Numbered from the stretch's first letter, positions 50,947 through 64,000 are shown. The stretch is DNA of 64,000 nucleotides from a virus (IMGVR_UViG_2931714059_000002:16218-80217), one strand, 5' to 3'. Translations and numbers: made by a program. The notes: generated from the sequence alone by a model not told the origin.

Positions 50947-52023
50947 ATGGCAAATCCGCTATCTGCCGCACGAGTTCTGGCCGCGCTGAAAGCCGAAGGT
51001 GTGCGCGTTGTCGAGTACAAGGGCTGGCGCACTCACAACCGCAACTCCGCCGGCGCATGGGGGCCGGTGCACGGCGTGATGATCCATCACACGGTGACGT
51101 CCGGCACGGACGCCTCCGTCGAGCTGTGCTACTCCGGCCGCTCCGACCTGCCGGGGCCGCTGTGCCACGGCGTGATCGACAAGGTCGGCGTCGTGCATCT
51201 CGTGGGGCACGGTCGCGTCAACCACGCGGGCAAGGGCGACAGCGCCGTCCTCCAGGCCGTGCAGGCCGAGCGGCCCCTGCCGCCCGACAGTCGGGCGGAC
51301 GTCGACGGCAACCCGCACTTCTACGGCTTCGAGTGCATCAACCTCGGCGACGGCCGCGACCCGTGGCCCGCCGAGCAGGTTGAGGCCGCGGTACGGGCGT
51401 CGGCCGCGCTGTGCCGCGCGCACGGCTGGGGCCGCTCCGGAGACACCTCCGTGATCGGCCATCTCGAATGGCAGCCCGGGAAGATCGACCCGCTCGGGCC
51501 CGGGGTGTCGATGGGCGACATCCGGGCCCGGGTCGCGGCCCGCCTCAGACACACCCCCGACTGGACGCCCCCCGAGGAGGACGACATGCCGCAGCGCATC
51601 GTGTTGGAGACCAACGGCTACACCCGCAGCATCGAGCCCAACACGTGGACGACGCTCAACTTCACGCGCATCTGGGAAGGCGCCTGGCGCGACAAGGACC
51701 CGGAGCCGTCCGTGCTGCTCGGGCCGTGCGCGTACTCCATCTCCGTCGGCCTGACCGTCGCCGGTCTGGCGCACGGCCAGGAGTTCAAGGTGCGGGTGGC
51801 GCGGTACCGGGAGGAGGACGGGAGGTACGTGCGGGTGTCGGCGATGCCCACCAGCTCGCCCGTGAACGACGCCGGGAAGGGTCACTTCGTCTACGGCTGG
51901 AACGGGCACGTGCCGGCTGCGAAGAAGGGCCGGCTGCGGGTCGAGGTCCAGCATCACGGCGAGGAGCCGGTCGTCGTGGAGTCGGCCCGCGCGGAGGCCC
52001 TGTACTGGCCGGGGGCGTCGTGA
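50947..52023 (+). CDS. Endolysin, N-acetylmuramoyl-L-alanine amidase (Amidase_2)
   Basis: VMIHHT, NHAG, GFECIN, IGHLEW..KIDP zinc-amidase motifs. Confidence 0.92.
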   Translation: MANPLSAARVLAALKAEGVRVVEYKGWRTHNRNSAGAWGPVHGVMIHHTVTSGTDASVELCYSGRSDLPGPLCHGVIDKVGVVHLVGHGRVNHAGKGDSAVLQAVQAERPLPPDSRADVDGNPHFYGFECINLGDGRDPWPAEQVEAAVRASAALCRAHGWGRSGDTSVIGHLEWQPGKIDPLGPGVSMGDIRARVAARLRHTPDWTPPEEDDMPQRIVLETNGYTRSIEPNTWTTLNFTRIWEGAWRDKDPEPSVLLGPCAYSISVGLTVAGLAHGQEFKVRVARYREEDGRYVRVSAMPTSSPVNDAGKGHFVYGWNGHVPAAKKGRLRVEVQHHGEEPVVVESARAEALYWPGAS

Positions 52024-52837: not shown

Positions 52838-52982
52838 CGCTCGGCCCGATGGCCTTGCCCCGGGCGGTGCCACTGCTCCTCGGGTAGCGCGCTGTGCCTC
52901 GATCCGTGAATGCGGAATCGACGCGGGCGAGACCTTGCCCCTGACATCGTAGGTACCCCCTACGTGACCTGGGAGGGCCGAC

Positions 52983-53252
52983 ATGAGCACCCCGGACGAA
53001 GTCGACCTGCGTGTCAGGATGCTGCGGATCTTGGCAGCATTTCACCGAAAGCGTGCCGCAGATCTGGACATGGCAGCAAGTGCCGTGTTCGCCACTCATG
53101 CGATGGACCGGCTCGTTGACGTGACCACAGAGGCAGAGGGGCAGGAAGTAGCCGCTCATCCAGATCTGGCTGAGCTGAATGTGCAGCTCAATGCGCTGTA
53201 CGAACGGCCACCGGCTGGGGGGTCCTCTGCGGGTGACACCAGCCAGTCGTAG
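52983..53252 (+). CDS. Hypothetical protein
   Basis: GGAGG RBS. Confidence 0.55.
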   Translation: MSTPDEVDLRVRMLRILAAFHRKRAADLDMAASAVFATHAMDRLVDVTTEAEGQEVAAHPDLAELNVQLNALYERPPAGGSSAGDTSQS

Positions 53253-53297
53253 CTGGAGCCACCCGCTCATCGCGGGCTGGGACCGGAGGCGAAGCCG

Positions 53298-53759
53298 CTA
53301 CAGCTCGCGGAGGTGCGCCAGGGCCGCCTCCGCGTTGTCGATGGCCATTCCGACTGCGGTCCAGACCGACTCGGAGAAGCTCACATCGTCAGTTCGATCC
53401 GGAGCCACGACCATCGCGGGCGGCGTCCGGACGGTGCGGAGCATCTGGCCGTTCATGACCCACTCGGATCCGCCTCGCGGCAGCGGGTCCGGTCCGGGAA
53501 TCCGGTACTCCGCCCACGCGGTCAGCTGCCGGTGGAGCGCCGGACTGTCGGGCCGGCCCCGGTCGAGGTGATCTGGGTCGCCGATACGCACGTGGACCTC
53601 GGGGCCGCCTCTGCCCGCGCGGAATCGCAGGGTGGGGTCGCCGATCTGGACCGCGATCTCGCCGGGCACACCGCCGAGGGCCATGGGGTGTACCTGGCGC
53701 AGCTTGGGCCATTGCGCGCGGACGGCTGCACCCGGGGCGGCATTGGTCTCGCGACTCAT
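53298..53759 (-). CDS. Hypothetical protein
   Basis: AAGGAG/GAGAAG upstream; last gene of the minus-strand block. Confidence 0.65.
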   Translation of the reverse strand: MSRETNAAPGAAVRAQWPKLRQVHPMALGGVPGEIAVQIGDPTLRFRAGRGGPEVHVRIGDPDHLDRGRPDSPALHRQLTAWAEYRIPGPDPLPRGGSEWVMNGQMLRTVRTPPAMVVAPDRTDDVSFSESVWTAVGMAIDNAEAALAHLREL

Positions 53760-53858
53760 GGTCTTCTCATCTCCTTCATCTCCGTGGTGCGCCTTTCTCG
53801 GCGTGGCCCCGCCACGTGCGTAATGGGGGCGGGTTGAGTTGCTACTTCTATCGACTGG

Positions 53859-54119
53859 TCAGTACCCGGTCCGCAACCTCTCGGCGTCCGCACGGACACG
53901 CTCCGTGCGGTCCACCCACTCACCGGGCGGGACTTTGCCGCGCGCGTCGTACTCCGCCATCGCCCGGCCGCGCTCCACGGCGGCCACGGTGTCCGTAGCG
54001 ATGCGCCGCCAGCGCTCCACGACGGCCGGCACCTCGGCGAGCGGCGCCCCATCCAGTGCGGCGGCGAAGCGCGGGGCCGCCGGGCCCAGAGCGGCACGGA
54101 TCTGAGCGATGGTCTCCAT
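53859..54119 (-). CDS. Small DUF6247-like helical protein
   Basis: GAGGAG RBS; IRAAL..RF..V..RWR. Confidence 0.65.
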   Translation of the reverse strand: METIAQIRAALGPAAPRFAAALDGAPLAEVPAVVERWRRIATDTVAAVERGRAMAEYDARGKVPPGEWVDRTERVRADAERLRTGY

Positions 54120-54130
54120 GTACTTCTCCT

Positions 54131-55069
54131 CTATCCGATGGGGGCCAGCAGCCTGCGCGGCCGGTGCGGGACGTGCTCCAGCAACCCGGCGGTCTCCAAC
54201 TCGCCGAGGGCCTGGCGCACGACGGTGCGAGGCTGCTGGAGCGCGCCGGCGAGCGCGGTCTCGGTCGGCAGATAGTCACCGGGCCGCAGACCTGCCCGCG
54301 CGATGTGCGCGCGGACTTCCTCAAGCACCTTCTCCTGCTCTCCGCTCGCTGCCCGGTCACGCACCCGCCAGCCCCGACCGGACTTGACGATCAGGAACTG
54401 CTCGGCGAGGAGTTCCAGCGCCCCCAGGATCGTGCTGCGGGAAGCGGCGTGACGGGTCATCAGCACGCTGACCGCTGGGAGGCGCACCGTGCCCTCGCCG
54501 CTCTGCACGGCGGCCCAGATATCCGCGGCGACCTGGCGGCGAGTGCGGCGGTCGCGGCCCGCCGCCCGGTCTGCCGTCCGGCGTCCCCCGTGGGCGGCCC
54601 GGCAGTCCGGGCACCGGCACTTCGCGTGGCGGTAGGTGTCCTCGCTGCCGTGCGGCAGGTCGGGATCACGGCCGGCCGTGAGCGCGTCGTCCAGCCGCTG
54701 GGACCACCCGGGGAGGTACAGATCGAGGCTGTGGAGCCGGGCGGTGGTGACGCCGTACTGCTGACACACCTCCGACAGCGGGACCCCGGCGGCGAGGTCG
54801 CCCAGCAGGCTCTCCCGGACATGCGCGGGCAGCCGCTCCAGGGCGGCGGTACGGCGGCGCGCGGACTCAGCAGTCCGGCGCAGGGACTCGCAGTGCCCGC
54901 ACCGGGACTTTTCGGCCGTCGTCATGCGGTAGCACTGCTGGCAACGGCGTTGCTCGCCGGGCCGGATACCAGCGGCAGCCAGGCGGGCGCACACGGAGCA
55001 GGGGCCGCTCCCGCCCCGCCAGGATTGGCATCGGCGACAGCGCCACGCAGGCGGGCGGGCAGCAGACAC
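54131..55069 (-). CDS. Zinc-ribbon + HTH + tandem GntR-type wHTH protein
   Basis: GAGGAG RBS before GTG 55069; four CxxC; PHG..Y..CRCPDC; two wHTH (LPAVS..SRSTI; LPTE..VVRQAL.ELE..G). Confidence 0.75.
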   Translation of the reverse strand: MSAARPPAWRCRRCQSWRGGSGPCSVCARLAAAGIRPGEQRRCQQCYRMTTAEKSRCGHCESLRRTAESARRRTAALERLPAHVRESLLGDLAAGVPLSEVCQQYGVTTARLHSLDLYLPGWSQRLDDALTAGRDPDLPHGSEDTYRHAKCRCPDCRAAHGGRRTADRAAGRDRRTRRQVAADIWAAVQSGEGTVRLPAVSVLMTRHAASRSTILGALELLAEQFLIVKSGRGWRVRDRAASGEQEKVLEEVRAHIARAGLRPGDYLPTETALAGALQQPRTVVRQALGELETAGLLEHVPHRPRRLLAPIG

Positions 55070-55097
55070 ACGTCTCCTCACAGTCACGGCGATGAAG

Positions 55098-55237
55098 GGG
55101 ACACCCCCGCGCGGGCGGGGAGCAGCGGCCGTGCCGCGCGACAAAAACGGGCCAACCCCGCACACGCGGGGAGCAGCGAGGTAGCGCCATCAGCGCTGCG
55201 CTCGGAACTGGATCAACCCCGCCTGTGCGGGGACCAG
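55098..55237 (-). CRISPR. Cas-less mini CRISPR array: three type I-E-like 28-nt repeats (55210-55237, 55149-55176, 55098-55125), spacers 33 and 23 nt
   Basis: Minus strand: CTGGTCCCCGCACAGGCGGGGTTGATCC / CTGCTCCCCGCGTGTGCGGGGTTGGCCC / CTGCTCCCCGCCCGCGCGGGGGTGTCCC; CCCCGC-N4-GCGGGG stem; 61-nt period. Confidence 0.85.
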
Positions 55238-55288
55238 ATAGTGTCCGACCGTAGCGCACCGGACCCAGTGCTGTCATGAGGACTGGTG

Positions 55289-56047
55289 TCAGCTTCTCGG
55301 AGCGACTGCGCGCCCCGGGCGCGGGCGGCCCGCGTGCGCAGCCTGCACCTGATCCGCCGCGTAACGCCCTTGTCCGCCACGGCCGGGCTCCCGATCCACC
55401 GGCAGCAGCCCCCAGCGGGAGAGCTGGCGGCGCGCGGACCCCGCCGCAATGGCCGCCGTGCCCCCGTAGCCGAGGTACTCCGCCACGCGACTGACCCTCC
55501 ACAGCTCGACCGGCCGCGCGGCGTAGGCGTCCAGGGAGGCGGGGCGCCACTGCGGCCGGCCCGCAACGTACCGGTCCGGCTCGGGCAAGTGCCCCGTGCC
55601 GCGCAGCGTGTCCCACCCAGCCGGGTCCATGGGTGCTCCGCGGCTGCTCAGGTAGCGGGGCACATCACGCCGGTCCAGGTGCGCGTCGGCAGCGGCCGCC
55701 GCGAAGGACGGCACGGGCTGAAAGGGACTGGACCCGATCACGCGCCAGTCGGGCGGGATCTTCGTCGCCTCGTACTCCAGGTGTTCGACCGGGGTGACGG
55801 TGGAGTCCGCTGGGTAGCGAGCCCAGCCGCGCCACGGCCGACGCTCGGGCTGCTCCGCCCGCTCAGGCGTGTACCACTGCTCCCAGTCCGGGACCCGGTC
55901 CCGCAGCGGAGCCTCGGACTCCACCCAGATATCCAGGGATCCCTGGGCCAGAGCCTCGGCCAGCGCTCGGGCACGGGGAGTGAGGTCGTCGAGGTTGACG
56001 GTGTCGGGGGCTCCGCCTTCGCGGAGGTGGATGGTCACGGTGGTCAC
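55289..56047 (-). CDS. Protein with two MerR/AlpA-like HTH domains (candidate operon autorepressor)
   Basis: LDRRDV..YL..G.LPEPD..GRPQW; LWRVSRVAEYLG..RRQLSRWG..RY. Confidence 0.7.
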   Translation of the reverse strand: MTTVTIHLREGGAPDTVNLDDLTPRARALAEALAQGSLDIWVESEAPLRDRVPDWEQWYTPERAEQPERRPWRGWARYPADSTVTPVEHLEYEATKIPPDWRVIGSSPFQPVPSFAAAAADAHLDRRDVPRYLSSRGAPMDPAGWDTLRGTGHLPEPDRYVAGRPQWRPASLDAYAARPVELWRVSRVAEYLGYGGTAAIAAGSARRQLSRWGLLPVDREPGRGGQGRYAADQVQAAHAGRPRPGRAVAPRS

Positions 56048-56077
56048 GTCATGTCCATTCTGTCGTGGCTGCCGCGG

Positions 56078-56494
56078 TCACATGTAGCGGGGATTGAGGT
56101 ACTCGTCCTCATCGCGCTGGGCGCGGGCTTCTGCCTCCATCGCCTGGATACGGCTTTCAGCCTCGGCCTGGTAGATGTACTCCCGGAGGCGTGGGGCGCC
56201 CTCCAGGCGCTCCGTGTCCAGGAGGTAGACCGCGCAGGGAACGCCCGGGTAGTCCCGGTGCCCGTCGGGGAGTTCACGGTCGAGCCCGATGGTCTCCATG
56301 GTGATGCCGTAGTCGCCGTAGGTCTGGCGGGAGTGCCCGAGGTAGACGCGTTCGCCCTCGTACTTGCCCGTGAGGGTGACCTGCTGTCCGGCTTCGTAGG
56401 CGGACTTGAGGACGGCGGCAGCGCCAACGACGCCGACGTGGCCCCGGACTTGGCGAGTGTGGCTGGTCAGGGTGATGGGGGGCAGCTCGGTCAT
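56078..56494 (-). CDS. Small acidic hypothetical protein (first gene of the array operon)
   Basis: AGGAG RBS, ATG 56494. Confidence 0.75.
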   Translation of the reverse strand: MTELPPITLTSHTRQVRGHVGVVGAAAVLKSAYEAGQQVTLTGKYEGERVYLGHSRQTYGDYGITMETIGLDRELPDGHRDYPGVPCAVYLLDTERLEGAPRLREYIYQAEAESRIQAMEAEARAQRDEDEYLNPRYM

Positions 56495-56569
56495 GCGGTT
56501 CTCCTGTCCGATCACGAAAACGGTGGGCGAGAGAGGTACCAGGCACGGATATCTCGCTCGCCATCCCCA

Positions 56570-56592
56570 TTATGCCTCACGGTGAGGCGTAA
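56570..56592. promoter_or_regulatory. Palindromic operator in the divergent promoter region
   Basis: TTATGCCTCAC-G-GTGAGGCGTAA; TTGACA about 10 nt to the right. Confidence 0.65.
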
Positions 56593-56713
56593 GGTCGCGC
56601 ATTGACACCCCGCAATAACCACCAACTTCCTCACTGTTTCGCCACTTGAGATACATGGCGGTAAGCCACCTGATGTGATGAAGCCGCCAACCCCCGATCA
56701 AGAGGAGAACACG

Positions 56714-57466
56714 ATGACGCAGAGCGCGGAGCCGACCACCGCAACAACTGCCGTGACGGTGGGGGTTGCACAGCGACCCGGCACGGAGTCAACCGGCCCG
56801 GCCGGCGAGGACCTCTGTGCGGACGGCGCGCACGTCCACCAGCGAGGAGACCGGGTGACCGCGGCCGTCGTCGACGGCGCCGGCCACCGCACTGAGGTCG
56901 TGGACCTCGCCCGCCACGCGCCCCCGATGATCGCGCTCATGGGCATGTCCATGGGCGGGCTCGTCGGGCTGACCACCGCCGGACGGATGGCCGACGCCTA
57001 CGACCACCCGCCGCACATGTCCGCCGTCTACGCCTCCATGGAGCCCGGCGAGGACACCGGCGTGCACTGGATCGGCGACTGCCGGGCCTACGGATGGGAC
57101 GGGGAGGAGCTGACGCTGTGGTCCACCGACCAGACCATGGGCGAATGGCTCGCGTGGAACGGCGGCAAGACCATCGAAGTCGTTCCCCGCGAGGTCGCGG
57201 AGACGCAGGATAATTGGGCGAGGCTCGGCCTCGCGCAGGCCACCGAGCTGACGTGCCGTCAGCTCCAGATCCCCAAGGAGATCCCGCTTGTCCTGCTCGT
57301 CTCGGACGGGGTGAGCGACCACGTCCCGGACCTGGCCGCCATCATCCGCGAGCACGAGGACGACGCGCAGGCCCTCGCGGACGCCCTCGTCGCCGCAGCC
57401 GAGGACGACGAGGAGGGGTACCGCGACGACGCGACGGTGGTCGTGCTGCTGCGCAACGACGGGTGA
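56714..57466 (+). CDS. PP2C/PPM-family Ser/Thr phosphatase (copy 2)
   Basis: GAGGAG RBS; CADG, VVDGAG, WIGDCRAY, LVSDG, DDATVV. Confidence 0.85.
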   Translation: MTQSAEPTTATTAVTVGVAQRPGTESTGPAGEDLCADGAHVHQRGDRVTAAVVDGAGHRTEVVDLARHAPPMIALMGMSMGGLVGLTTAGRMADAYDHPPHMSAVYASMEPGEDTGVHWIGDCRAYGWDGEELTLWSTDQTMGEWLAWNGGKTIEVVPREVAETQDNWARLGLAQATELTCRQLQIPKEIPLVLLVSDGVSDHVPDLAAIIREHEDDAQALADALVAAAEDDEEGYRDDATVVVLLRNDG

Positions 57467-57635
57467 AACGCCCACCAGGCCCAGCCCTCACGTGGCTGAA
57501 CGGCGGGCATCTGTGTCGCCTCCGGTCCAGCGTTCGTCCTCGGCGGCGCCGCCGGACACCTCGCACAGGCCCCGGACGCCGGACATGACACAGCCCCGCC
57601 GCCCACAGTTCGCGGGTGGCGGGGGCTTCGGCGCG

Positions 57636-59629: not shown

Positions 59630-59704
59630 GTCATCAGCGCGTCTACCGTCCGACATATGGCGTCCCTACGCTGGTGGCAGGATCTCACCGCTGGGGGCAC
59701 CACC

Positions 59705-60952
59705 ATGAGCACAGCGCTCGGGCAAAACATCCGTAAATACCGCAAGTTGAGGCAGCTCACCGTGCGGGCACTGGCTGACCGCGTGGCCATCTCAGTCAGC
59801 GCGCTGGAGAAGTACGAGCGGGGCGACCGCGTGCCGCCGCCGGCCGTCGTCACGCAGCTGGCGCGCGTACTCCACGTCGGCCCGGACCGGCTGCACGGGC
59901 AGCCGTGGGCGGCCGAGCCGGCCGACGGCGAACTGAGCGTCGTACCTGAACTCCGCCGGATCCTCCTCACCTACGACACCCCGGACGCCGCGGTGCTGGA
60001 GCCGCGCCCGCTGGAGGTGCTGACGGCGGAGATGGACCAGGTCGCGCGAATGCGGCAGGACGGGCAGTACGTGCAGCTGGCGCCGCTGCTGCCGGGACTG
60101 CTGACGGAGCTGACACACCTGGCACTGGGCGGGACTCCGGCGGTCGCCCGGGACCGCCGGGCGTTGCCGCAGCCGCAGGCCCGCGCGTTCCGCCAGCTCG
60201 CTGTCGGCTACCGGGCGGCCAACAGCCTCGCCCACAAGCTCGGTTACCACGACCTGAGCTACACGGCGTGCGAGCGGGTGCACTGGGCGGCGGACCGCTC
60301 CGGGGACCCGCTGATGCAGGCGACGGCCGCGTACCTGCGGGCCGGGGCGATGATCCGCATGGGCGCGCTCGGCTCGGCCCGCACCGTGCTGGAGGGCCTG
60401 GCCGACGAGGTGGAGCGGATGGCCCCGGAGCTGTCGCTGTCGCCCGAGCACCAGGCCGTGATGGGCGCGGTGCTGCTCAAGCTCGCGGTGGTGGAGGCGA
60501 GGGACGGGCAGCCGGATCGGGCGATGGAGCGCCTGGCCGAGGCTGGGACGTGGGCCGAGGCGCTGCGGGTGGATACGACGCACTACGAGATGTCGTTCGG
60601 GCCGGCCAACGTCCGCATCCACGAGGTCGCGATCCTGTCCGACACGGGCGATACGGAGCAGGCTCTCGCGCGGCTGCGGGAGTGGGGCGGCGAGCAGGGC
60701 GTGGATGAGTGGGAGCTGCCGGACGGCCTGGCCGCCGAGCGCGCCAGCCACCACCACATCGACGTGGCGGCGGCCCGCCTCGCGGAGGGCGACCGGGCGG
60801 GCGCGCACCGGAGCCTGCTGGAGGCGCGGCGTATTGCCCCGATGCACACGCGGCATCACCCGACGGTGCGGGCGACGGCCGGTGCGCTGGTGCGCCTGGA
60901 CCGCGGGGCGCACGACTCGGTCGCCGGTTTGGCCCGCTGGGCAGGCGTGTAG
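59705..60952 (+). CDS. XRE-family HTH regulator with TPR-like C-terminal domain
   Basis: LGQNIRKYRKLRQLT..LA..IS.S.L.KYERG; FGPANV.IH motif. Confidence 0.88.
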   Translation: MSTALGQNIRKYRKLRQLTVRALADRVAISVSALEKYERGDRVPPPAVVTQLARVLHVGPDRLHGQPWAAEPADGELSVVPELRRILLTYDTPDAAVLEPRPLEVLTAEMDQVARMRQDGQYVQLAPLLPGLLTELTHLALGGTPAVARDRRALPQPQARAFRQLAVGYRAANSLAHKLGYHDLSYTACERVHWAADRSGDPLMQATAAYLRAGAMIRMGALGSARTVLEGLADEVERMAPELSLSPEHQAVMGAVLLKLAVVEARDGQPDRAMERLAEAGTWAEALRVDTTHYEMSFGPANVRIHEVAILSDTGDTEQALARLREWGGEQGVDEWELPDGLAAERASHHHIDVAAARLAEGDRAGAHRSLLEARRIAPMHTRHHPTVRATAGALVRLDRGAHDSVAGLARWAGV

Positions 60953-63085: not shown

Positions 63086-64000
63086 TCAGAAGTCTCCGAG
63101 GTCGAGGCTCCGCGCCTCCTCGATTGATCGGCGCTCGCTCGCGGCCTGCGTGTAGCGGTCGAGCATCTCGCGGCGCGACCATCCGGCCATCGCCATCAGG
63201 CCGCCCTCGGACCCCCCTCGGTCCAGCCAGCGAGCGGCCGCCGTGTTGCGGAGCATGTGGGGCCAGAAGTCCTCGATGCCGGCCAGCTCTGCACGGTACA
63301 TCAGCGTCGAGTAGAAGCCGTTGTAGCCGATCGTGCGTCCGCGGTCACCGAGCCACAGCGCAGCGCTATCGGCAAGACGGTGCCGTCGGCGGTGCCGTAG
63401 GTAGCGATCCACCGCAAGGCACGTCTTGGGGCCGATCGAAACGACCCGTCCCTTACCACCCTTGCCCTTGCGGATGATACAAATGCCTTCCTGGAGGTCG
63501 ATGTCATCGACCGTCATGGAGATGAGTTCACCACGGCGCATCCCGGTTTCCAGCAGAATGCGGACGATGGCCTCATCGCGGCGGTCCCGGAATTCTTTTC
63601 CGGCGCAGGCTTGAATGAGAGCCTTGCACTCCTCCTCAGATAGTTGACGTACAACTTTGATATCGACTTTGACGGCTGGGAGCCGGTCCAGGTGGTCGAC
63701 GTCGATCTCACCCTCGTCCAGGAGCCAGGCACTCAGCCGGCGGAGGGACGCCTGACGGATCTGTGCGGTGGCCGGCTCGCGGCCACTATCCAGCAGCTCG
63801 GCGATGAAGCTCCTCACCGTTTGCCGGTCGAGCCGCGGAACCGTGTCCGTGGCGGCGCACCAGCTCAGAAATTGCTTGACGCCATCGCCGTAGACCTTGA
63901 TGGTCTGGGGGGATTTACGGCTCCCGCGCAGGTGGATCAGCCATGACTCTAGGTAGCCGGACTCCAGAATGGGACCCTCGGCTTTGGGCTTCTTGGGCAC
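63086..64000 (-). CDS. int: Tyrosine recombinase/integrase (start may lie beyond the window)
   Basis: TGMRRGEL, KGKGGK, PHMLR, AGW, DRY catalytic residues all present. Confidence 0.93.
   Translation of the reverse strand: MPKKPKAEGPILESGYLESWLIHLRGSRKSPQTIKVYGDGVKQFLSWCAATDTVPRLDRQTVRSFIAELLDSGREPATAQIRQASLRRLSAWLLDEGEIDVDHLDRLPAVKVDIKVVRQLSEEECKALIQACAGKEFRDRRDEAIVRILLETGMRRGELISMTVDDIDLQEGICIIRKGKGGKGRVVSIGPKTCLAVDRYLRHRRRHRLADSAALWLGDRGRTIGYNGFYSTLMYRAELAGIEDFWPHMLRNTAAARWLDRGGSEGGLMAMAGWSRREMLDRYTQAASERRSIEEARSLDLGDF

Follow-up and report, generated by a model that had tools for sequence, protein, structure and literature searches.

Among the elements directed against CRISPR systems are viral arrays of regulatory anti-CRISPR RNAs that resemble CRISPR RNAs (crRNAs), the Cracr arrays (Liu et al., bioRxiv 10.1101/2024.10.29.618823). 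The CracrIE array of a Salmonella prophage consists, according to this preprint, of three repeat mimics with spacers of 24 and 21 nucleotides (nt), and the authors assign a candidate to the class by at least nine matches proximal to the protospacer-adjacent motif (PAM), either to the spacer of a host CreR/CreA or to its target in the cas/creT promoter. The host mini-arrays CreR and CreA are described as carrying a spacer with a partial match to the nearby cas promoter, in which every sixth position is free (Shmakov et al. 2023, bioRxiv 10.1101/2023.03.03.530964). RNA anti-CRISPRs (Racrs) are defined as solitary repeat units, and SRUFinder puts arrays and mini-arrays aside from them (Camara-Wilpert et al. 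2023, PMC10651486). The linkage of acrIF24 and cracrIF is a precedent for a locus that combines protein and RNA inhibitors (bioRxiv 10.1101/2024.10.29.618823). The principle is not new; publications dated from 2023 to 2026 describe the mechanism. The DNA analysed here, called the window, comprises 64,000 nt and corresponds to bases 16218-80217 of a provirus record in IMG/VR, 80 kb long and rated complete; the phage is temperate and of the Streptomyces type. On the minus strand of the window, at 55097-55237, lies a type I-E crRNA-like mini-array of three repeats, which follows a pair of small genes, A and B. We read this array, with a probability of roughly 55 %, as a Cracr-kind viral crRNA-like anti-CRISPR array, a phage RNA that would hijack or jam the CRISPR machinery of the host.

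The array has the layout R-32-R-22-R, with the repeat coordinates given in the 29-nt register on the minus strand. Repeat R1 (55237-55209, CTGGTCCCCGCACAGGCGGGGTTGATCCA) is followed by spacer 1 of 32 nt (55208-55177), R2 (55176-55148, CTGCTCCCCGCGTGTGCGGGGTTGGCCCG), spacer 2 of 22 nt (55147-55126), which is shortened against the canonical length, and R3 (55125-55097, CTGCTCCCCGCCCGCGCGGGGGTGTCCCC). All repeats have the type I-E form, a stem-loop with an 8-nt handle ending in CC-N, and the hairpin cores are intact in three of three. Three cores of the pattern CCCCGC-N4-GCGGGG fall within 128 nt; the shuffle expectation is 0.12 per window, and none of 100 shuffled sequences reached three. Rfam, searched with E values of 1 or less, returned nothing of the CRISPR-DR kind for the array; the sole row was a chance-level match at 54012-54047. 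No Cse1 gene was found in the provirus record searched, which places three I-E-type repeats on a mobile element outside a CRISPR-cas locus, as is expected of Cracr arrays. The shortened spacer, a further mark of that class, is represented by spacer 2. A sequence-only reading of the locus had connected the array with Racrs. This connection was given up: the repeats are not solitary, they follow each other at periods of 61 and 51 nt, and the closest class is the Cracr array.

R1 begins 51 nt past the stop codon of gene B, in agreement with the roughly 50 nt proposed earlier, and a candidate promoter occupies part of this interval (55277-55248, minus strand). It consists of ATGACA (55277-55272), an 18-nt gap and TACGGT (55253-55248), and lies 10 nt before R1. 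A syntenic array in a second prophage, locus L066, is preceded by CTGACA-N18-TACGGT, and the block GCGCTACGGTC is common to both loci; in both, nTGACA-N18-TACGGT ends 6-10 nt 5' of R1. In a test of the motif, four of 31 arrays carried it, against two of 620 random 60-mers. The motif shared with L066 points to a dedicated promoter from which the array would be driven, and co-transcription with A and B is then not required.

Three further observations concern the array sequence. The R1 loop ACAG and the R2 loop GTGT (within 55148-55237) are nearly complementary; in the minimum-energy fold, R1 is consequently paired with R2 along about 16 nt, in place of two local hairpins. Spacer 1 contains the internal palindrome AGCGC-TGATG-GCGCT. 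A repeat-like stretch at 55038-55066, CTGCTGCCCGCCCGCCTGCGTGGCGCTGT, is identical to R3 at about 19 of 29 positions. Its start lies exactly 61 nt beyond that of R3, in the N-terminal coding part of a GntR gene, and both a decayed fourth repeat and chance are conceivable.

The relation of such an array to a host cas locus can be followed in L066, a prophage of Streptomyces sp. H27-D2 (genome G001). Here a copy of A fused to a helix-turn-helix (HTH) domain, a short A and B precede an array R-32-R-19-R and an intrinsic terminator, with the first repeat 32 nt past the stop codon of gene B; its A and B proteins share no more than about 50 % identity with those of the window. The host possesses genuine type I-E arrays and a cas3-cse1 fusion. 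About 560 nt 5' of cas3-cse1 lies a two-repeat mini-array with a 32-nt spacer (L084 12525-12615, minus strand; G001:C86), which looks like a CreR-type autoregulator. The first spacer of the prophage and the spacer of this host mini-array are identical at 23 of 32 positions, a value reached by two of 1000 shuffles. A partial target, AAC followed by TGGGGACTGTACAACCCGA, is situated about 110 nt downstream of the host mini-array, towards cas3-cse1. The host spacer fits this target over positions 1-19, with 12 and 18, both flipped, as the exceptions; for the prophage spacer the fit covers positions 1-17, with 3 and 6 as the exceptions. The prophage array in H27-D2 has at least nine PAM-proximal matches to the CreR-like spacer of its host or the target thereof, the measure applied to Cracr arrays, and at the level of sequence the two spacers stand in the CreR/Cracr relationship of the literature.

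Arrays of this form are not confined to the two prophages. A two-repeat pattern search yielded 59 viral contigs (L007-L065) with at least two I-E-like repeats, and 31 of them hold short-period units of 44-56 nt (mostly 47-51), usually between diverged repeats. These units correspond to spacers of about 15-27 nt, mostly 18-22, and the short spacers group into recurrent families. They were compared with 101 Streptomyces cas-upstream regions (772 kb), a set made up of 98 of 107 Cse1 places, the H27-D2 locus, which is also one of the 107, and two regions from genomes G402 and G406; eight Cse1 places, which were fragments at contig ends, duplicates or matches both weak and partial, were excluded. 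At least 14 of the 15 seed positions were matched by seven of 50 unique short spacers and by one of 50 after shuffling. Three viral spacers are near-copies of spacers from repeat-flanked host mini-arrays; they were present in the viral contigs L025 (host region L162), L059 and L064 (both L198) and L060 (L227). Judged by repeat and spacer patterns, the crRNA-like array class is common in actinobacterial proviruses, and the seed matches lend the Cracr reading support at the level of the class. Candidate regulatory mini-arrays with spacers of 18-27 nt and degenerate repeats were noted in the host regions L162, L198, L227, L145, L151, L152, L158, L165 and L241, and many short-period viral arrays show a TGCCATAGT-like or TAnnnT motif 5' of the first repeat.

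Several results weigh against the assignment of the window array to the Cracr class. Neither spacer had a target in a collection of 50,697 phage records or in the provirus itself, an exact scan of IMG/VR, made for spacer 1, gave no match, and neither spacer had a match above noise in the 101 Streptomyces cas-upstream regions, a set outside which the host genome of this provirus lies. The assignment rests for this reason on architecture and synteny and not on a demonstrated match. Spacer 1 has the full length of 32 nt, with which a cleaving guide is possible. The repeats are 79-83 % identical to each other over the 24-nt core, which also fits decay, and the array promoter scores below the threshold of a consensus scanner. 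In H27-D2, the seed of the prophage spacer departs at position 3 from the target in its own host.

Several candidates from these searches were discarded. Matches of the spacers or array to a Xanthomonas phage primase (blastn) reached only E = 6 and were taken as chance. The best match in the cas-upstream regions (L219) had no flanking repeats and stayed at shuffle level. Degenerate spacer patterns in 401 Streptomyces genomes gave counts little above the reversed-pattern control, and the recurring matches were conserved coding sequence. A scan of IMG/VR for the handle with the spacer start returned three matches in viral contigs of lower GC content, all attributed to chance. Three solitary hairpins elsewhere in the H27-D2 genome (L073-L075) stand beside housekeeping genes and are not CRISPR-related.

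The two genes in front of the array probably form a self-repressed module. Upstream of gene A, at 56570-56592, a palindromic operator candidate reads TTATGCCTCAC-C-GTGAGGCGTAA, or TTACGCCTCAC-C-GTGAGGCATAA on the minus strand. Its 11-nt arms are complementary at 10 of 11 positions, it occurs once in the window, and it overlaps a -10-like hexamer CATAAT (56574-56569). The core ACGCCTCA-N-CGTGAGGCAT recurs just 5' of the first gene in the related modules L004 and L005, and a variant with two substitutions is present in the L006 module. The palindrome is kept in these three modules; their proteins are only 36-46 % identical to those of the window. The modules L066, L068 and L069 have a different operator, two overlapping TACAGC-N5-GCTGTA palindromes over TTGAC. 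The recurrence of the palindrome in front of related modules supports autoregulation and the acr/aca-like layout that had been proposed for the locus (acr, anti-CRISPR; aca, anti-CRISPR-associated). Both the conserved palindrome and the order of A and B speak for such an operon, but the array, having a promoter motif of its own, need not belong to the same transcript.

Gene B (56047-55289, minus strand) encodes a protein of 252 amino acids (aa) of phrog_34233, with a conserved N-terminal domain and two modelled winged helices of the MerR/Xis type. The sequence-only reading had called it a double-HTH gene, a designation that holds at fold level only: Pfam returned no family at all for the protein, an HTH included, and the evidence comes from an AlphaFold model (predicted local distance difference test, pLDDT, 89) and its local Foldseek matches. 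These were BldC, RacA, MtaN and the excisionase RdfS, all MerR/Xis-type winged helices, with weak E values, probabilities of 0.93-0.94 and, for BldC, template modelling (TM) scores by target of 0.67-0.74. The second HTH of B is present in the window and in L004-L006, together with the ACGCCTCA-type palindrome, and absent in L066, L068 and L069, together with the TACAGC-type operator; this co-occurrence rests on few independent lineages. As the second HTH follows the operator type and the A protein of the window lacks the HTH of most of its relatives, gene B is the likeliest candidate for a protein that binds the palindrome and represses from it.

Gene A (56494-56078, minus strand) had been described as an acidic orphan of 138 aa, and this was borne out: the isoelectric point is 5.08, mildly acidic, and neither a family nor a fold was matched. 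The modelled protein (pLDDT 86) has a beta-rich domain and a long C-terminal helix. Foldseek searches against PDB and BFVD and a wide VIA-align comparison gave no meaningful match (best Z 3.6), and a search of the ESM Atlas gave nothing usable. The nearest relative is a protein of Streptomyces xiamenensis with 83 % identity. Six of ten relatives bear an N-terminal MerR/Xis-type HTH of about 55 aa, and the window copy is a short form without it. A genome scan with the A family found six loci, L066 among them. In the place where the relatives encode the HTH, an inverted-repeat search detected a hairpin with a 13-nt stem in the leader of gene A (56526-56562, minus strand), followed by CACCGTTTTCG. 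The hairpin and CACCGTTTTCG could be an attenuator or the scar of a deletion, of a lost HTH-coding segment. L004, L066, L068 and L069 have the A domain joined to the conserved N-terminal HTH. In L005 (3111-3650) and L006 (3249-3797) the same Xis/MerR-type HTH carries an unrelated C-terminal domain of about 130 aa, which replaces gene A behind the same palindrome. One HTH with unrelated C-terminal domains is compatible with variable effector domains and is no evidence of function.

The module invites an explanation in which proteins, too, are inhibitors. The protein of gene A and/or that of gene E, an orphan further downstream, would be type I-E protein anti-CRISPRs, B an Aca-type repressor on the palindrome, and protein and RNA inhibitors would act jointly. 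The layout of operator, small acidic orphan, HTH gene and repeat mimic fits this explanation, as do the recurrence of the order A-B-array in L066 and the lack of a known fold for gene A. The fusion of one N-terminal HTH to the A domain in four modules and to another domain in two points in the same direction; HTH domains fused to varied C-terminal domains resemble Acr-Aca fusions. Linkage of acrIF24 with cracrIF in 21 of 58 cases has been published by Liu et al., and co-location of racr and acr genes is published as well. However, an array accompanies only two of the seven modules that contain B, those of the window and of L066, and is missing in five (L004, L005, L006, L068 and L069), two of which, L068 and L069, belong to genomes without a Cse1 match. 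The promoter of the array itself also weighs against a role of A and E as anti-CRISPR proteins, and in none of the 68 loci that carry arrays or modules was a relative of E present. Neither A nor E matched a family in Pfam, PHROGs, NCBIfam or PADLOC, and no library dedicated to Acr or Aca proteins was compared. In the neighbourhoods of homologues, proposed as a check by the sequence-only reading, A, B and array stand together again in L066, and the majority of modules have no array. The nomination of 56078-56494 and 53298-53759 as Acr candidates finds no support so far; on present evidence a protein anti-CRISPR role of the two products is unlikely, and so is the joint scheme.

Somewhat less probable is a Racr-type array that acts purely as a decoy. 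Cas6e and Cas7 would then be caught by the repeat mimics in dead-end subcomplexes, and the sequences between the repeats would have no target. The missing targets of both spacers, the divergence of the repeats, as expected of mimics, and the array's own promoter near R1 agree with a decoy, and I-E Racrs have been shown experimentally (Camara-Wilpert et al. 2023, PMC10651486). The spacer of the syntenic array in L066 is, however, homologous to a guide upstream of the host cas genes, and spacers of 32 and 22 nt at periods of 61 and 51 nt match the guide-bearing arrays of other proviruses, whereas Racrs are by the definition of that study solitary units.

A more far-reaching variant is doubtful to a still higher degree. 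In it, the A domain, free or fused to the HTH, would constitute a new actinobacterial family of type I-E anti-CRISPRs with B as Aca-like repressor, and the shortened spacer of an accompanying Cracr array would build a small Cascade beyond the reach of the protein inhibitor that the phage itself makes. If this were true, the pairing of A/B with a Cracr array would be the I-E and Streptomyces counterpart of the synergy between AcrIF24 and CracrIF.

We consider it quite improbable that the array is a working mini-CRISPR for superinfection exclusion, the 32-nt spacer of which would direct Cascade and Cas3 of the host to destroy a rival phage or plasmid. The length of spacer 1 is canonical, its place is between two well-formed repeats, and Shmakov et al. 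(2023) describe mini-arrays of viruses that are directed against other viruses. A target on a mobile element, as a functional viral mini-CRISPR should have, was not found: spacer 1 was unmatched in the phage records and without exact match in IMG/VR, and spacer 2, only 22 nt long, was covered in the phage collection only. Moreover, the 32-nt spacer of the L066 array copies a regulatory guide of the host and not a phage. That the repeats are a decaying, functionless remnant, acquired by recombination with a host array or a mini-array of a cas locus, is hardly credible, since the moderate likeness of the repeats and the possible degenerate fourth repeat inside gene C are opposed by three intact hairpin cores and by a layout and promoter motif that are kept in L066 with its distant A and B proteins.

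The explanation that accounts best for the locus as a whole, held with a confidence slightly better than even, combines a self-repressed A-B module with a Cracr-type array and read-through into the genes C, D and E. The protein of gene B would bind the palindrome over the -10 region and repress the module. Transcripts of the array would be processed by the host Cas6e and loaded into Cascade proteins, where, by analogy with L066 and the published Cracr arrays, they would compete with genuine crRNAs. The 22-nt spacer may build a shortened Cascade. At least one of the array RNAs may guide Cascade, without cleavage, to the cas promoter of some host strain, and the phage would then meet a weaker CRISPR immunity. 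Read-through from the array promoter into the GntR regulator and two small genes is probable, and no terminator was found between R3 and gene C.

Gene C (55069-54131, minus strand) encodes 312 aa with a Cys-rich N-terminus and two GntR winged helices. Its likeliest start is GTG at 55069, with the ribosome-binding site GAGGAG 4 nt before it; the open frame extends to 55165. It had been announced as a Zn-ribbon/tandem GntR gene. Membership in the GntR family is secure, with PF00392 matched in two stretches (E 1.7e-17; 63.2 bits against a Pfam cut-off of 27), but the Zn-ribbon, read from CxxC pairs in the translation as its sole basis, has no family match. Two small genes of 86 and 153 aa follow, as predicted. 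Gene D (54119-53859, minus strand; 86 aa) has a weak match to DUF6247 (E 0.0022, below the cut-off). Its relatives with 50-54 % identity in L030 (6651-6902), L051 (5797-6045) and L066 (8046-8297) each lie within 1-3 kb of I-E-like repeats, and this proximity may reflect only related prophage backbones. Gene E (53759-53298, minus strand; 153 aa) is an orphan with ten distant relatives, the best of 41 % identity, and an alignment without conserved stretch; the ESM Atlas gave nothing usable.

The palindrome, the open reading frames (ORFs) and the repeats were all found where the sequence-only reading had located them. The five ORFs of 138, 252, about 312, 86 and 153 aa run head to tail on the minus strand and share a GC content at third codon positions of 0.84-0.87, in a window of about 70 % GC. 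This cassette belongs to the accessory arm of the provirus, between the lysis genes and the XRE-type regulator and integrase: structural genes on the plus strand extend to the lysin (50947-52023) on one side, and an XRE-type regulator (59657-60952; phrog_5823) and a tyrosine integrase (63086-64000) follow on the other. Divergent from the cassette is a gene for a PP2C/SpoIIE-like phosphatase (56675-57466, plus strand; phrog_5650), with weak matches in Pfam and NCBIfam; a 180-nt intergenic region is common to this gene and the palindrome. No tRNA or tmRNA gene was detected in the window, and a distant blastn search of 52900-57500 against the phage collection gave no match. No RNA sequencing run containing the cassette locus is listed, the only run being one of DNA, which may represent the source sample.

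A comparison with the known systems starts with the acr-aca operons and the linkage of acrIF24 and cracrIF. As there, a small orphan gene precedes an HTH gene, the promoter contains an inverted repeat, and an RNA mimic adjoins. It differs in the HTH domains, which are of MerR/Xis type, in the lack of Acr/Aca homology in the general family libraries, none dedicated to these proteins having been compared, and in an A-B module that occurs without arrays, also in genomes without a Cse1 match. What it has in common with the Racrs is a repeat mimic that follows a separate promoter and lies on a prophage in the vicinity of acr candidates, and I-E representatives of the Racrs were among those tested (PMC10651486). 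A Racr is, in that description, a single repeat without guide, whereas here three repeats with CRISPR-like spacing enclose inserts of guide length.

The CreR elements of Shmakov et al. have their likeness in H27-D2, where the element 5' of cas3-cse1 consists of two repeats that frame a partially matching spacer. Candidate elements of this kind, repeat-flanked mini-arrays with 18-27-nt spacers, occur also in other Streptomyces cas-upstream regions. Unlike CreR and CreA, the window array is phage-borne, lies outside a cas locus and has three repeats.

The nearest counterpart is CracrIE of Liu et al.: as there, the window array is prophage-borne and without cas genes, with three diverged I-E mimics and two spacers, one of them shortened. 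The spacer of the L066 array derives, in the manner described for Cracr arrays, from a mini-array of the host cas locus and matches a site in the cas promoter region, and small neighbouring genes, here as there, are possible protein partners. In contrast to the described Cracr arrays, the spacers of the window have no known target, and spacer 1, with 32 nt, is of full length. The host is an actinomycete of the Streptomyces type, in the case of L066 with a cas3-cse1 fusion, and the neighbouring genes are unrelated to AcrIF24. The name Streptomyces does not appear in the main text of any of the three publications cited above on Cracr arrays, CreR/CreA and Racrs. The array of the L066 prophage and the cas-upstream guide of its own host form a clean natural test pair, and the conserved, probably self-regulated gene pair may serve as a landmark for the insertion of such arrays beside it. 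Work on Streptomyces genetics and on phages would gain compact natural guides by which native I-E systems may be silenced. Liu et al. count 20 I-E arrays in their main text; our survey with its 31 short-period I-E-like contigs gives more. If the reading of the window array is confirmed, phage crRNA-like anti-CRISPR arrays would extend to Streptomyces-type prophages and to type I-E systems with cas3-cse1.

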